Translations under genes and position numbers: made by a program
NCBI RefSeq assembly: GCF_004010195.1
Contig: NC_057718.1
Coordinates: 5,995,110 to 6,059,109, forward strand
Source: Chiloscyllium plagiosum
Taxonomy: Eukaryota
Direction: 5' to 3'
Length of the DNA stretch: 64,000 nt
Shown here: in pieces, positions 13,438 to 64,000 of the stretch
How positions within the stretch are numbered: the first letter of the stretch is position 1
Layout: every line of letters starts with the position of its first letter
The notes under the pieces: generated by a model
The model's input: only the letters and a program-made list of their open reading frames with translations
What the model was told of the DNA's origin: nothing
Database searches by the model: none

Positions 13438-13571
13438 TAGACATATAAGCTTGTGGGGTGAATTTGTACTTGCAGAATTACATTTTACTTTGCTCAAAAA
13501 CTGCATGAATCCATGTCAGATTCTGTAAATCCATCTTTTAGATTAGAATCAGTCTGACTGTTGTGGCACAG

Positions 13572-13782
13572 GTAACAACAATGACTGCAGATGCTGGAAA
13601 CCAGAGTTTAGATTAGAGTGGTGTTGGAAAAGCACAGCAGTCCAGGCAGCATCCGAGGAGCAGTAAAATCGACGTTTCGGGCAAAAGCCCTTCATCAGGC
13701 TTTTGCCCAAAACGTCGATTTTACTGGTCCTCAGATGCTGCCTGAACTACTGTGCTTTTCCAGCACCACTCTAATCTAAAAC
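13572..13782. mobile_element. Fold-back element with a minus-strand hammerhead core
   Basis: 14-bp TSD CTGTTGTGGCACAG (13558-13571 and 13783-13796). Core CUGAUGA-A-GGGC(uuuu)GCCC-GAAA-CG-UC. Confidence 0.85.
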
Positions 13783-14053
13783 CTGTTGTGGCACAGTCTC
13801 ACACAGGGCACCTCACACCTTCGATACACTATTTGGGCCGACATGATACCTATTGTTAAAGTTCACTTGAGAATATAACTTCTAAAAAAAGGTTTTATGA
13901 TTTACATATGAAAGAACTGAAACTAACATGTTCATTCTAAAAGATGAGAGACTTAACAAACAGTCCAGATCTTTTTCAATATATAATTTCAGTTACATCA
14001 CACTGTAAACCTTTGCTGTAAATTCTGTGTCTTACGATCTTATACTCCACAAC

Positions 14054-16360: not shown

Positions 16361-16556
16361 AGAGAAGGTGAGGACTGTAAGGACGAGAGTGTAGTGCTGG
16401 AAAAGCACAGCAAGTCAGGCAGCATCTGAGGAGCAGGAGAATCAATATTTCAGGCATAAGCCCTTCATCAGGAAGGGCGTGTGCCCAAAACATCAATTCC
16501 CCTGCTCCTCGGATGCTGACTGACCTGCTGTGCTTTTCCAGCTCCATACTTTTTTA
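16361..16556. mobile_element. Fold-back element
   Basis: 13-bp TSD CACAAACAAGACA (16348-16360 and 16557-16569) and inverted arms. Confidence 0.8.
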
Positions 16557-21959: not shown

Positions 21960-22180
21960 TAAAAAAACGAAAAAAATTGGGAATGCTGTAAGTCAGAAAA
22001 TCAAAAACAGAAATTGCTGGAAAAGCTCAGCAGGTCTGGCAGCACCTGTGGAGAGAAATCAGAGTTAAAGCTTCAGGTTAAGTTCTGAGGAAGGGTCACT
22101 CAACCTGAAAGGTAAACTCTGATTTCTCTCCACCAGTGCAGCCAGTCCTGATGAGCTTTTCCAGCTATTTCTGTATTTGA
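21960..22180. mobile_element. Fold-back element
   Basis: Inverted arms gctggaaaagctcagcagg..gagagaaatcagagtt and a degenerate CUGAGGA..GAAA core. Confidence 0.75.
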
Positions 22181-41825: not shown

Positions 41826-44792
41826 GTGAAGAAGGTAGCACTGACAGGGAATACTTACGGACACAGAGATGGGTTCAAGTGTGTATACTTCAACGCAAGG
41901 AGTATCAGAAATAAGGTCGGTGAACTTAAGGCGTGGATAGGTACCTGGGACTACGATGTTGTGGCCATCACGGAAACATGGATAGAAGAGGGACAGGAAT
42001 GGTTGTTGGAGGTTCCTGGTTACAGATGTTTCAGTAAGATTAGGGAGGGTGGGAAAAAAGGAGGGGGGGTGGCATTGCTAATTAGAAATGGTATAACGGC
42101 TGCAGAAAGGAAGTTTGAGGGGGATCTGCCTCTGGAGGTAGTATGGGCTGAAGTCAGAAATAGGAAAGGAGCAGTCACCTTGTTGGGTGTTTACTATAGG
42201 CCCCCCAATAGCAGCAGAGATGTGGAGAAACAGATGGGGAAACAGATTTTGGAAAGGTGCAGAAACCACAGGGTAGTAGTCATGGACGATTTCAACTTCC
42301 CAAATATTGATTGGAAGCTCTTTAGATCAAGTAGATTGGATGCGGCGGTGCTTGTGCAGTGTGTCCAGGAAGCTTTTCTAACGCAGTATGTAGATTGTCC
42401 AACCAGAGGGGAGGCCATATTGGATTTGGTACTCGGTAATGAACCGGGACAAGTGGGGGGCTTGTTAGTGGGTGAACATTTTGGTGATGGTGACCACAAT
42501 TCTGTGACTTTCACCTTGGTGATGGAGAGAGATAGGTGCGCACAACAAGGTAGATTTTATAATTGGGGGAAGGGAAATTACGATGCTGTAAGGCAGGATT
42601 TGAGGAGCATACGTTGGGAGCATAGGCTGACAGGGAAGGATGTGGTGGAAATGTGGAACTTCTTCAAAGAGCAGATACGACGTGTCCATGAAATGTATGT
42701 ACCTATCAGGCAGGAAAGAAATGGTCGTGTGAAGGAGCCTTGGTTGACGAGAGAGGTTGAATGTCTGGTAAAGAGGAAGAAGGAGGCTTACATAAGGTTG
42801 AGGAAACAGGATTCAGACAGAGCAGTGGAGGGATACAGGATAGCCAGAAAGGACCTGAAGAAAGGGATTAGGAGAGCTAAGAGAGGGCATGAAAAATCGT
42901 TGGCGGATAGGATCAAGGATAACCCCAAGGCATTTTATGCGTATGTGAGAAACCTGAGAATCACGAGAACGAGGGTAGGTCCGATCAAGGACAGTAGTGG
43001 GAGACTGTGTATTGAGTCGGAAGAGATAGGAGAGGTCTTGAACAAGTACTTCTCTTCAGTATTTACGAACGAGAGGGACCGTATTGTAGAAGAGGAGAGT
43101 GTGAAATGGACTGGTAAGCTAGAAGAGATACCTGTTAGGAAGGAAGATGTGTTGGACATTTTGAACAACTTGAGGATAGACAAGTCCCCCGGGCCTGACG
43201 GGATATATCCTAGGATTATGTGGGAAGCAAGAGAGGAAAGTGCAGTACCGTTGGCAATGATCTTCTCGTCTTCACTGGCAACGGGGGTGGTACCAGGGGA
43301 CTGGAGAGTAGCGAATGTTGTGCCCCAGTTCAAAAAAGGGAATAGGGATAACCCCGGGAATTACAGGCCTGTTAGTCTTACTTCTGTGGTAGGCAAAGTA
43401 ATGGAAAGGGTACTGAGGGATAGGATTTATGAGTATCTGGAAAGACACTGCTTGATTAGGGACAGCCAGCACAGATTTGTGAAGGGTAGGTCTTGCCTTA
43501 CAAGTCTTATTGAATCCTTCGAGGAGGTGACCAAGCATGTGGATGAAGGTAGAGCAGTGGATGTAGTGTACATGGATTTTAGTAAGGCATTTGATAAGGT
43601 TCCCCATGGTAGGCTTATGCGGAAAGTCAGGAGGCACGGGATAGAGGGAAATTTGGCCAATTGGATAGAAAACTGGATAATTGGCCAATTGGATAAAAAC
43701 CAGTCGAAGTCAGAGAGTGGTGGTAGATAGCAAATATTCAGCCTGGAGCCCAGTTACAAGTGGAGTTCCGCAGGGACCAGTNNNNNNNNNNNNNNNNNNN
43801 NNNNNNNNNNNNNNNNNNNNNNNNNNNNNNNNNNNNNNNNNNNNNNNNNNNNNNNNNNNNNNNNNNNNNNNNNNNNNNNNNNNNNNNNNNNNNNNNNNNN
43901 NNNNNNNNNNNNNNNNNNNNNNNNNNNNNNNNNNNNNNNNNNNNNNNNNNNNNNNNNNNNNNNNNNNNNNNNNNNNNNNNNNNNNNNNNNNNNNNNNNNN
44001 NNNNNNNNNNNNNNNNNNNNNNNNNNNNNNNNNNNNNNNNNNNNNNNNNNNNNNNNNNNNNNNNNNNNNNNNNNNNNNNNNNNNNNNNNNNNNNNNNNNN
44101 NNNNNNNNNNNNNNNNNNNNNNNNNNNNNNNNNNNNNNNNNNNNNNNNNNNNNNNNNNNNNNNNNNNNNNNNNNNNNNNNNNNNNNNNNNNNNNNNNNNN
44201 NNNNNNNNNNNNNNNNNNNNNNNNNNNNNNNNNNNNNNNNNNNNNNNNNNNNNNNNNNNNNNNNNNNNNNNNNNNNNNNNNNNNNNNNNNNNNNNNNNNN
44301 NNNNNNNNNNNNNNTGAAGTGGTGTTGCAGCTGTACAGGACTTTGGTTAGGCCACATTTGGAGTATTGTGTGCAGTTCTGGTCGCTTCACTTTAGGAAAG
44401 ATGTGGAAGCTTTGGAGAGGGTGCAGAGAAGATTTACCAGGATGTTGCCTGGAATGGAGAATAGGTCGTACGAGGATAGGTTGAGAGTGTTAGGCCTTTT
44501 CTCATTGGAACAGCGAGGGATGAGGGGTGACTTGATAGAGGTTTATAAGATGATCAGAGGAATAGGTAGAGTAGACAGTCAGAAACTTTTTCCCCGGGCA
44601 CAACCGAGTGTTACAAGGGGACATAAATTTACGGTGAAGGGTGGAAGGTATAGGGGAGATGTCAGGGGTAGGTTCTTTACCCAGAGAGTGGTGGGGGCAT
44701 GGAATGCGCTGCCTGTGGGAGTGGCAGAGTCAGAATCATTGGCGACCTTTAAGCGGCAATTGGATAGGTACATGGATAGGTGCTTAGGCTAG
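41826..44792 (+). pseudogene. CR1 ORF2: APE endonuclease and reverse transcriptase; frameshifted, RT core in assembly gap
   Basis: YFNARS, ITETW, YRPP, DFN, GDHN, KSPGPDG, NYRPVSL, DFSKAFDKVPH, VPQG and RPHLEYC motifs. Confidence 0.93.
43782..44314. other. Assembly gap (533 N)
   Basis: Run of N. Confidence 1.
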
Positions 44793-55892: not shown

Positions 55893-56158
55893 CTAAAAAT
55901 AAAACCAAAAGATGTGGATGCTGAAGATCTGAAATGAAAGCAGAAACCGCTGGAGAAGCTCAGCAGGTCCAGCAGCATCTGTGGAGTGGAAGCAGAGTTA
56001 ATATTTAAGTCCAGTGACTTTTCCTCAGAACTTATGGCAGCTAGGAAAGTTATGAGTTCTGAAAAAGGGGTCACTGGGCTCGACACGTTGATTCTGCTTT
56101 CTCTTCATAGATCCTGCCAGACCTGCTGATTTTCTCCAGCAGTTTCTGCTTTTGTTTG
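55893..56158. mobile_element. Fold-back element
   Basis: Inverted arms of the same family as 21960-22180. Confidence 0.75.
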
Positions 56159-61895: not shown

Positions 61896-62959
61896 GACTC
61901 TTCCAACTGCTCCAAATATGGCACATTACATCACAGAGATGGGTTAAACCAAACAAAGAGGAATCCCAAATGGGGAACCTTCCCTGCACTGGTCTCTTTC
62001 AGTGCCAAATGTTCAAATGCCTGACAACCAGTTAGCTAAAGGTCAGAAAGTGCCACCCACTGGGTATTCCAGGCCTGTCAAAGCTGAAGCAGCAACAAAT
62101 CATCCTTGACAAAATCAAACAGCAGTGGTCCTGTATGACTGTCAGGGTCACTTTTTCTGCCTCCTTCCCTCATTCAACAAGCAACCTGAGTAAACCCACC
62201 ATGGCATTCATGTTTATATACCATCGCTCAGTAATAGAAGGCGTGTCCCTTTGACTCTAGCAGCATCAAGAGCAGAAGTGGCTTCTGCCAGGAGATTTTG
62301 GAAAAAAATTCATGGGATAAATTTCTAGTCAGCCCACAGCAAGAATGAAGTGGATCTGAATAAGTTTTGCAAAATTGATGTTGGAGACTCGGTGGCCTGA
62401 TTTACACACTGCCAGATTTTCATCCTTAGTAGAAATTAGCATGGGGTAGAAAAGAGGTCGCTGATTCACCATCAATCTTTTGCAGCTCAGCTTAAAAATA
62501 ATCTGGCATTTATTCAATGACCACTGGGCATCTCAAAGCTCCTTGGAGTCACTAAAGTATTTTTGAAGTGCAATTTAGGAAACAGAACAGTAGCTTTGTG
62601 CAGGAAATAACATCATGGTAAAGATAATTTGTTTGATCAGAGGAATGCATCTAAGTTTTTTTCTTTTGCAATGCAACAGAATAACTCTGAATTATTCATT
62701 CAGATCCTCAGCTTTATACAGTCTCTCACTCTGTTGTCTAGTTTAGCTGACACTAATCATTCAGTCAGTTAGTGATTAACATGAAGGTAACACTAGTGAA
62801 GAGCTTTTATTTCTTATTGTTAAGCTTAACTCATTTGGTCGTTCCTCCACCTTAAGACAAGTCAGTTCAATCTCCCTCCATGGCTTAATCCTACCATCTA
62901 GCACTGCACTTTGGTAAATGTTCTTGTCCAGATGACTTGTTGAAGTCATCACTTACTTG

Positions 62960-63435
62960 TTAAAAACCAAAAAAACTGCAGATTCTGTAAATCACAAAGA
63001 CAAACAGAAATTGCTGAAAAACCTCAGCAGGTCCAGCAGCATCTGTGGAGAGAAATCAAAGTTAACGTTTCAGGTCCAGTGACCCTTCCTTAGAACATGG
63101 TTCTGAGGAACGGTCACTGGACACGAAAAGTTAATTTTGCTTTCTCTCCATAGAGCTGAAAATGTGTTGCTGGAAAAGCACAGCAGGTCAGGCAGCATCC
63201 AAGGAACAGGAGAATCGACGTTTCGGGCATAAGCCCTTCTTCAGGAATGAAGCCTGAAGAAGGGCTTATGCCCGAAACGTCGATTCTCCTGTTCCCTGGA
63301 TGCTGCCTGACCTGCTGCGCTTTTCCAGCAACACATTTTCAGCTCTGATCTCCAGCATCTGCAGCCCTCATTTTCTCCTTTCTCTCCATAGATGCTACCA
63401 GACCTGCTGAGCTTTTCCAACGATTTCTGTTTTTA
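62960..63435. mobile_element. Older fold-back element hosting the 63155-63377 insert
   Basis: Inverted arms ctcagcagg..agcatctgtggagagaaa. Degenerate CUxAGGA-GGGUC-ACUG-GACCU-GAAACGUU cores. Confidence 0.75.
63155..63377. mobile_element. Young fold-back (Penelope-derived) element with a hammerhead core on each strand
   Basis: About 94-bp near-perfect arms (63152-63245 and 63253-63346), a 3' tail, and a 15-bp TSD CTTTCTCTCCATAGA. Confidence 0.85.
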
Positions 63436-64000
63436 TCACTTACGTGTTGTTCTAGATGTTAAACATTCTGACCTCAATTTTACGACTGTAAGCTATTCAG
63501 CTCATTGGGTTCCCGTTGGTGTTTTGATTGAAAATGTTAGGCCATTGTATCACTACTGAACAAAGAGTAACTGCCATCCTTCTTGTACACATAATGGTAC
63601 AAAAGTATAAAGCAATTGGTTATTTATCTCTATACCATTTGTGGGAGTGTACTCATCACTGCTTTGTTTATTACACCTTGTATATCTCACTTCCCTACGT
63701 GCCCCCAATTTCATGAAGGCGCCCACTCCTGGTAGATATGATCCATGACTATCCAGCAGTCTTTGGAGCTTTACCTCAGTACCATGTCTCCACATCTAAG
63801 ACTTGTCTGTTACAGTGAGCAGACTGCTTGTTCCTGGGGGTAACTCAGCAAAAGTCCCACGTTTAAATACACTGTTCAGAAACTCACAACCAGGAGTATG
63901 ACACTTAGGTTTCCTTCTTTGACATCCAAGACCACTCTGAGGAGAAAGTGAGGACTGCAGATGCTGGAGATCAGAGCTGAGGAAGAAGGGCTCATACCCG

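Follow-up and report, generated by a model that had tools for sequence, protein, structure and literature searches.

The fold-back element at positions 63140-63392 of a 64,000-nucleotide stretch of Chiloscyllium plagiosum DNA (contig NC_057718.1, positions 5,995,110 to 6,059,109 of the forward strand; the whole stretch is called the window here) carries minimal hammerhead ribozyme (min-HHR) cores, and its closest described relatives are the Penelope-like elements (PLEs), cited throughout from extracts of the published accounts. In 2014, Cervera and de la Pena (PMC4209133) defined the min-HHR as a type I hammerhead pared down to the conserved boxes: helix III and loop 3 are absent, positions 9 and 10.1 are separated by one additional base, a G10.1-C11.1 pair follows and positions 15.2-16.2 are palindromic. 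According to the same source, min-HHRs occur in the pseudo-long terminal repeats (pLTRs) of PLEs with thousands of mostly solitary copies per metazoan genome, sometimes as a pair on opposite strands with 100-700 bp between the motifs, and in vitro their cleavage was weak and required the dimeric form.

In PLE insertions, 5' truncation is strong, a neighbouring inverted copy that is also 5'-truncated is frequent, and a tail of 30-40 bp is present at one end (Craig et al. 2021, PMC8557442). For the Poseidon element PAc of Anolis (PMC11167929), the protein cleaves and extends both DNA strands. Its reverse transcription has two internal start sites, located in an AC-rich stem-loop that follows the hammerhead closely, and the tail is the stretch between these sites. 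Ribozyme cleavage was unnecessary in vitro in that work, whose extracts report no RNA-seq reads starting or stopping at the ribozyme site. In addition, the promoter of Drosophila Penelope is internal, lacks a TATA box and has an initiator (Inr) and a downstream promoter element (DPE) (PMC2377424).

Overall, the fold-back in the window is very probably one head-to-head insertion of the terminal or leader module of a canonical endonuclease-bearing (EN+) PLE. Insertions of this kind are ordinary, though very abundant, and no new system is involved. A preliminary description of this DNA had read it as an ambisense ribozyme retroelement and put it forward as the best candidate for an undescribed system. 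The claim of novelty did not hold since every architectural trait is already published for PLEs in the extracts of PMC8557442 and PMC4209133, and the ambisense character was merely the automatic mirror image of an inverted duplication.

Anatomy of the fold-back and its hammerhead cores

The features identified in the fold-back, from left to right, were:

63140..63154, no strand: left target-site duplication (TSD) CTTTCTCTCCATAGA, from the repeat search and flank scan
63155..63249, minus strand: tail-less inverted arm with CATTC, the complete minimal hammerhead and the conserved 3' block, ending in ...TTTTCAGC
63217..63244, minus strand: minimal hammerhead core with its helix-I 5' strand (CAUUC, 63245-63249)
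63250..63252, no strand: three filler bases AAG at the head-to-head junction, from the sequence and the junctions of other copies
63253..63346, plus strand: forward arm, 5'-truncated, with one of the four helix-I 5' bases
63254..63281, plus strand: second hammerhead core, without helix I
63347..63377, plus strand: 31-nt PLE tail, on the forward arm only
63378..63392, no strand: right TSD, from the repeat search and flank scan

The repeat search of the window showed two inverted arms of 94 nt each at 63152-63245 and 63253-63346, which were 98% complementary and 7 nt apart. They were enclosed by the exact 15-bp direct repeat CTTTCTCTCCATAGA at 63140-63154 and 63378-63392, itself part of a 20-nt repeat of 90% identity, and only the right arm bore the 31-nt tail, with no counterpart on the left arm. 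At its outer edge the left arm included 3 nt of the TSD (63152-63154, AGA), and the true end of the tail-less arm was ...TTTTCAGC, as in other copies. Five of the seven spacer bases (63245-63249, GAATG) read CATTC on the minus strand, which is the 5' strand of helix I for the ribozyme there. The pattern search placed the core CTGAAGAAGGGCTTATGCCCGAAACGTC at 63254-63281 on the plus strand and at 63217-63244 on the minus strand, with a third, related core (CTGATGA...TTTT...) at 13671-13698 on the minus strand; at up to three mismatches these were the three matches in the window, compared to none in 100 shuffles. Thus, the inverted arms, one-sided tail, exact duplication and core on both strands were all as first described. 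The plus-strand core lacked helix I, since its arm begins at 63253 with just one of the four helix-I 5' bases left, and the minus-strand core, which keeps helix I, is therefore the only complete one.

Written as RNA, the core reads CUGAAGA-A-GGGC-UUAU-GCCC-GAAA-CGUC on either strand. The hammerhead was recognised only by eye and by pattern, through the features of the published minimal descriptor. The CUGANGA and GAAA boxes and an H (not G) cleavage site were found on both strands, and the boxes were invariant in all 32 aligned sequences. An unpaired base between 9 and 10.1 and the G10.1-C11.1 pair were present (A after CUGAAGA, then GGGC/GCCC), and the segment GAAA-CG-UC gave A15.1 C15.2 G16.2 U16.1, the loop-less palindromic ACGU of helix III. 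These features agreed with the minimal type I hammerhead first proposed. An older related family, with 1,014 exact cores in the genome and the form AGUU-CUGAGGA-A-GGGUC-ACYG-GACCC-GAAA-CGUU|AACU, likewise had a loop-less helix III (CGUU).

The covariation alignment contained 32 segments, 19 of them distinct, from four young subfamilies and the older family. Overall, 88.7% of the alignment cells were paired compared to 8.7-62.1% when the 3' partner was slid by 1-3 columns. Pairs 13-26, 14-25 and 15-24 were 100% paired. By eye, the young families have C-G as their fourth helix-II pair, whereas the older family has U-A there and a fifth pair, C-G, in addition. In helix I, which has 4 bp, pair 2.1-1.1 was C-G in 7 of the distinct rows and U-A in another 10, while pair 2.3-1.3 was G-C in 8, U-A in 1 and an unpaired U.U in 10. 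Two of the four helix-I pairs therefore change on both sides between the families (C-G to U-A and U-A to G-C). Loop II varied (UUAU, CUGU, UCAU, UAAU, UUUU and ACYG) while the catalytic boxes were constant. The covariation score was reached by 9 of 500 shuffles; the events are few, come from a comparison of two deep lineages and run in the same direction. As judged from this alignment, helices I and II show compensatory changes between the young and older families, a test that the preliminary description had proposed for stems I and II.

The predicted fold of a single arm formed helix II together with a long-range GGAUGCUG/CAGCAUCU pairing, from the post-ribozyme block to the tail. The tail-less end lay in ...CCAGCAACACAUUUUCAGC, adjoining a predicted UGCUG/CAGCA hairpin, and the tailed end 31 nt further.

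The genome-wide family and its Penelope-like partner

A strict core pattern matched 44,050 times on the forward and 44,116 times on the reverse strand of the 3.56-Gb genome, that is, 88,166 exact cores, while the reversed control pattern gave no match. Tail ends numbered 24,959 with a pattern that fixes one flanking base. A set of 36 distinct copies was studied: eight loci from the core search, 26 distinct loci with ATTC before the core and two copies of the window, after removal of three duplicates due to palindromes and of one locus already in the set. Some of them had two arms head to head, others were solo arms, and a few were long copies. Three of the two-arm copies were unscorable for arm ends. 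In all 14 scorable ones, the longer arm extended to position 112 or further on a reference of 125 nt (to 121-125 in 13 copies, and to 112 in the copy at 13.6 kb in the window), and the shorter arm stopped at position 82-98. Solo arms were present with or without the tail and stopped at either of these end positions. The tail could be on either arm, irrespective of which arm had the more complete 5' end. The inner junction between the arms differed between copies, and head-to-tail junctions were rare in the sampled copies.

When the two flanks of each copy were scanned for their longest common substring, 24 of the 36 copies showed a candidate TSD of 7-17 bp, mostly 12-16 bp, with less certainty in 6 of the 24, where the match was 10-20 nt off a boundary. 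The other 12 copies, without a match of at least 7 bp, were long, masked or complex, or had shorter matches. Taken together, the tail of 30-40 bp at one end, the 5' truncation with an inverted 5'-truncated copy and the TSD of variable length were those of EN+ PLE insertions.

Among the tail ends listed, about three quarters preceded T, many of them TA or TC, which could mean either that the tail as drawn is short by one base or that there is a target preference. One copy (L002) had ~150 nt of unrelated, ORF-like sequence between a candidate TSD, found by eye, and its tailed arm; this 5' extension resembles a template switch onto another RNA at the 5' end of the arm. Recurrent variants in which the whole ribozyme is absent between two direct ATTC repeats (ATTC/TCCTG... 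and CCTGA/TTCTCC..., the slash marking the junction) were seen among the matches listed and could be deletion products or hammerhead-less sublineages. In addition, public sequencing runs with four different organism labels contained approximately one third to two thirds of the sampled 31-mers of 63100-63420, and therefore near-identical copies of the family are common to several of the labelled organisms.

The autonomous partner was found through copies of the CUGAUGA subfamily, which have conserved sequence upstream of the core. A genome search with this upstream stretch produced loci whose open reading frame (ORF) ends ~180 nt before the core. Segment L014:840-1421, upstream of a CUGAUGA-subfamily core, found 10 longer proteins and aligned with one of them, P0006, at residues 746-898 (49% identity, E 5e-46). 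In P0006, a protein of 902 aa, RVT_1 (residues 394-575) and GIY-YIG (residues 806-886) scored 42.4 and 32.4 bits respectively, each above its Pfam cut-off. For the subfamily of the window (CUGAAGA, UUAU loop), L007:1-390 showed an endonuclease C-terminus, an untranslated region (UTR) of ~190 nt and then the core and arm; the core lies ~240 nt downstream of the GIY-YIG endonuclease C-terminus. In the long copies L040 and L055 the sequence reads N from where the endonuclease ORF would end.

At the other end of the element, 5 to 7 of the 100 tails listed (of 24,959) ran into one conserved sequence. In L060 and L062 the arm and tail continued for more than 340 nt into it, and in L060 an ORF opened 38 nt after the tail, residues 7-175 of which aligned with residues 3-174 of P0006 (27% identity, E 4e-14). 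A second arm lay ~3.7 kb downstream in L060, and the endonuclease of the preceding tandem unit was at L060:3-67. An ORF opening at the AUG of CUGAUGA, in the style of Anolis, was also considered; this frame stops after ~20 codons and the real ORF starts after the tail. The whole-genome search with Pfam GIY-YIG gave only one weak match. Its matches to the locus ORFs were marginal, at 20.4 and 13.7 bits with the cut-off at 22.6, and therefore the endonuclease link rests on BLASTP and HMMER matches to the longer homologue.

Since arm and tail stand before the ORF start and the arm stands again after the endonuclease C-terminus, the arm is to be read as the pseudo-LTR or leader of a canonical EN+ PLE, and the arm plus tail, on sequence grounds, as the end of that pseudo-LTR, a leader just before the ORF. 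The autonomous partner with the same pseudo-LTR that the preliminary description proposed to look for, with reverse transcriptase (RT) and C-terminal GIY-YIG endonuclease and flanked by the same repeat, was thus found, both ORF ends aligning to P0006.

Within the window, the young element is inserted into an older fold-back of the related family, in its forward arm. This diverged host (62963-63096 with the tail, 63100-63158 and 63374-63434) has a candidate 14-bp TSD at 62948-62961 and 63435-63448. The other copies annotated in the window were:

62963..63096, minus strand: inverted arm and tail of the older-family host fold-back, from the repeat search and BLAST
63100..63154, plus strand: first part of the older-family forward arm, split by the young element
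63393..63434, plus strand: second part of the older-family forward arm, without tail, from the repeat search and BLAST
13570..13790, minus strand: second young-family fold-back, with the CUGAUGA core at 13671-13698, a shorter inverted arm and a 14-bp TSD

BLAST with the arm showed about a dozen more copies of various ages in the window, and four fold-backs there other than the one at 63140-63392 had the same plan. Three fold-backs of the young or old family were located at 21964-22179, 55897-56157 and 16385-16552. The first two, both of the older family, each had one longer tailed arm and one shorter arm, and neither arm of the third was tailed. Finally, a run of 533 N bases at 43782-44314 lay within the RT ORF of a CR1/L2-like long interspersed nuclear element, with translated flanks ...SGVPQGPV and EVVLQLYRTLVRPHLEYCVQFW..., and similar N runs covered the ORF bodies of PLE copies at many loci.

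Origin of the insertion and the 5' end of the arm

Under the preferred explanation, each arm would be the cDNA of a PLE RNA segment that begins where helix I has its 5' edge (at the A of ATTC, which precedes CUGA by 4 nt) and extends to either of two reverse transcription start sites, ~95 nt (no tail) or ~126 nt (tail) downstream. By analogy with Anolis Poseidon in vitro, both strands of a staggered target cut would prime reverse transcription, one cDNA beginning at the outer site and the other at the inner site. Both cDNAs would then run to the 5' end of the RNA and be joined head to head, and the 15-bp stagger would become the TSD. A head-to-head pair with one tail would be the expected product of such priming from both target strands, one per start site. 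The ribozyme carried along is the minimal type I hammerhead already described from PLEs, in which helix III forms only with another sense copy.

A transcript over both arms was predicted to form a continuous 94-bp hairpin of -189.8 kcal/mol (z -26). From either strand, such a transcript holds one sense core and its antisense and never two sense cores, and therefore helix III, or the dimer, cannot form in cis. The fold-back transcript would thus probably be ribozyme-inert in this model. The suggestion that the antisense could gate self-cleavage did not survive, as a hairpin of this stability is a lock that sequesters the core and not a tunable gate. The fold-back at 63140-63392 has no ORF and no tandem partner, and with only one complete core it is therefore most likely a dead-on-arrival by-product of insertion.

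Several observations weigh against the reading as a PLE hammerhead by-product. The RT core reads N in the partner loci, and the RT is deduced from homologues of both ORF ends. The subfamily of the window itself carries the U.U mismatch in helix I (10 of the 19 distinct rows), and the fold of a single arm (-26.7 kcal/mol) was no more stable than that of shuffles (z -0.02). No Rfam hammerhead family was matched at E up to 10 in 62900-63600 or at gathering thresholds in the whole window; this miss is expected because the motif has no helix III. Genome counts of 5' junctions were 808 at the cleavage site compared to 412 and 461 one base to either side, and recurrent microhomology classes explain much of this excess. 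The junctions listed were dominated by the recurrent junction or deletion classes CAG/GA, CCT/GA, ACG/CGA, GCC/CGA and GGA/ATT, and a tally by eye of the matches listed suggested clusters at the cleavage site and just 3' of helix II. No pile-up of read ends was seen in a polyA single-cell RNA run, a library unsuited to short RNAs and 5' ends. This run, the organism label of which may not be that of the window, gave 1,594 family reads in both orientations, 97% of which continued into unlike flanks, and the consensus sequences of loose ends at 63250 and 63253 matched the long-form UTR. A second RNA run yielded 0 reads and carries no weight either way. No RNA run was listed among public runs as containing the stretch 63100-63420. 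Finally, the discrete 5' ends of the arms and at least three identical composite copies, both described below, leave the choice between by-product and self-spreading unit unsettled.

The alternative that survives best is that the short arm is itself a self-spreading, non-autonomous retroelement, like a short interspersed nuclear element or a retrozyme, with its own internal promoter, the initiator of which would overlap helix I, and with hammerhead and RT entry site; it would be transcribed from its first base, use the PLE protein in trans and yield fold-backs as one outcome. This was considered possible, though clearly less likely than the insertion of a PLE leader. It is supported by the discrete 5' end at ATTC, which was found in most of the matches listed. 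Of 7,840 matches to ATTC plus core, 100 were listed and inspected by eye: 15 continued with the CTC of the long form and the rest reached flank, filler or an inverted arm within 3 nt, an approximate share since the pattern requires A at -19, which admits all of one long form and excludes another. Perfect palindromes of the form ...CAGGAAT-G/C-ATTCCTG... were common among these matches. Solo arms abutted the TSD exactly at ATTC in several loci, and with one extra G, by eye, in L038 and L057. The short arms of the older family begin at (C)AGTT, and the start is the exact 5' edge of helix I in both families.

The initiator consensus is TCAKTY or YYANWYY. The long form reads TCATTC at the start in the young family and TCAGTT in the older one, and as sequences both fit this consensus, though helix I covaries between the families. 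An initiator-like start kept in both families is what a self-spreading arm with its own promoter would have, and the internal Inr and DPE promoter of Drosophila Penelope (PMC2377424) offers a precedent; with an internal RT start, as in the extracts of PMC11167929, read-through 3' ends would be irrelevant. The discrete 5' end also fits a run-off cDNA, made by an RT entering a 5'-proximal site of the capped mRNA of a master element. The arms have the same sequence as the pseudo-LTR or leader of the ORF-bearing copies, and therefore run-off cDNA of the master mRNA explains the same 5' end. In addition, the CCTG-loop subfamily read through ATTC in 52 of 100 listed matches (of 8,592), which counts both against a universal 5'-end rule and against the self-spreading arm. 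The absence of an RNA 5'-end pile-up in the polyA run, a library weak for that purpose, also speaks against the self-spreading arm.

Part of the CCTG-loop read-through is accounted for by a composite unit, the copies of which (L089:1-751, L090:15-765 and L092:22-780) were pairwise 100%, 100% and 99.5% identical over 751-760 nt. These identical copies, which end exactly at the tail, show that a fold-back within a longer unit can be copied whole, and they favour the self-spreading arm. The composite is ~855 nt long, is present at least three times on one contig, at places far from each other, and has its left edge at L095:2397 and L096:2411. It consists of ~495 nt of non-PLE 5' sequence and a CCTG-loop fold-back with ~150 and 66 nt of UTR on its arms. 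No convincing TSD was found for it, and it could be a 5' transduction or a young non-autonomous lineage.

A more specific form of this alternative, doubtful on present evidence, is that the arm of 95-126 nt would be a complete minimal mobile unit and no product of truncation, with an initiator-type internal promoter over helix I, the ribozyme in its first 32 nt and an internal RT entry site, the RNA of which would start at the A of (TC)ATTC or (TC)AGTT. If so, the more than 10^5 arm 5' ends of the genome would record the PLE transcription start, ribozyme cleavage would strip the cap from every transcript, and the centre of each fold-back would be a divergent promoter that sends each arm outward as hairpin-free RNA.

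Returning to the insertion of a PLE leader as the preferred reading, the fold-back is very unlikely to be a hairpin gene for small RNAs of the microRNA (miRNA) or small interfering RNA type. The stable 94-bp hairpin transcript, scores of 20-69 bits with Rfam miRNA models and family reads in both orientations in one RNA run would agree with such a gene. All Rfam matches were below the gathering scores (59-104 bits) and reflect a generic hairpin shape; the best had 69.2 bits against a threshold of 90, and none passed at gathering. Moreover, the hairpin is a by-product of the same insertion mechanism that gives solo arms.

Finally, a miniature inverted-repeat transposable element (MITE) moved by a DDE transposase with a coincidental hammerhead-like motif can be dismissed almost with certainty: the near-perfect terminal inverted repeat within a direct repeat resembles one, but TSDs of 7-17 bp and not of fixed length, asymmetric ends with a one-sided tail in all 14 scorable two-arm copies and solo arms that insert with their own TSDs, along with inner junctions of varying position, exclude it, as do the identity of the arm with the leader or pLTR of an RT and GIY-YIG element and the 88,166 occurrences of the motif against none for the control. 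The fixed-length TSDs and symmetric terminal inverted repeats named beforehand as speaking for a transposase were not seen, and the original view of a PLE-related retro-insertion stood, backed by the variable TSDs, the one-sided tail and the partner.

Comparison with described systems

The cores in the window shared with published PLE min-HHRs the CUGANGA and GAAA boxes, the extra base, G10.1-C11.1, the palindromic loop-less ACGU and a short helix I of 4 bp, as well as the location in a pLTR, the massive copy number and the opposite-strand pairs. They differed in helix II, which has 4 bp here (5 bp in the older family) compared to 6-8 bp in the invertebrate examples of the published extracts, and in number, as the 88,166 exact cores are approximately ten times the roughly 9,000 quoted there for Xenopus. 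Dimer cleavage of PLE minimal hammerheads was reportedly described by Lunse, Weinberg and Breaker. The family is thus a very large vertebrate example, in a 3.56-Gb genome, of the link between PLEs and minimal hammerheads.

Compared with the PLE insertions of PMC8557442 and PAc of PMC11167929, as extracted, the 5' truncation, the inverted 5'-truncated neighbour, the tail of 30-40 bp at one end and a hammerhead of the GAAACGUC type were the same. PAc also has two RT start sites near an AC-rich hairpin, which here lie ~95-126 nt after the hammerhead. Its ORF starts inside the hammerhead, while the ORF here starts 38 nt after the tail. Most copies here also differ from PAc and other PLE insertions in being the 95-126-nt module alone with a discrete 5' end. 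The genomic copies by themselves thus show two features known from Anolis in vitro, namely RT start sites one tail apart and products consistent with priming on both strands. A new lead is the discrete 5' end at the helix-I edge, with initiator-like sequence in two families whose helix I covaries. If this end is the transcription start, the ribozyme would lie at the extreme 5' end of the PLE RNA, and the long-open question of what the hammerhead is for would become directly testable.

Metazoan non-LTR retrozymes (PMC7229834; preprint 10.64898/2026.07.22.740005, Li, Clavereau and Pollet 2026) are, in the extracts, likewise non-coding, hammerhead-bearing and PLE-derived, with a proposed dependence on PLE protein, but they have head-to-tail tandem repeats, canonical type I hammerheads and circular RNAs, in contrast to the head-to-head pair and minimal hammerhead here. 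The inverted arrangement and the absence of helix III placed the fold-back outside this group. The Sm-alpha and Sj-alpha elements of Schistosoma have a Pol III-type promoter. As described in part in PMC6765202, they are similar short non-coding retroposons in which a promoter is followed by a hammerhead; their hammerhead is canonical, whereas the promoter here is suggested by the initiator-like start.

MITEs and Foldback DNA transposons share the long terminal inverted repeats and the flanking duplication, and differ from the present family in its variable TSD, one-sided tail, solo arms and origin from a retroelement leader. For genome annotation, the family is a warning against classifying fold-backs of this type as MITEs or as hairpins of miRNA genes. 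Overall, what is worth keeping of this family is its scale and the 5' end at the helix-I edge, within a known class of insertion and not as a new one.

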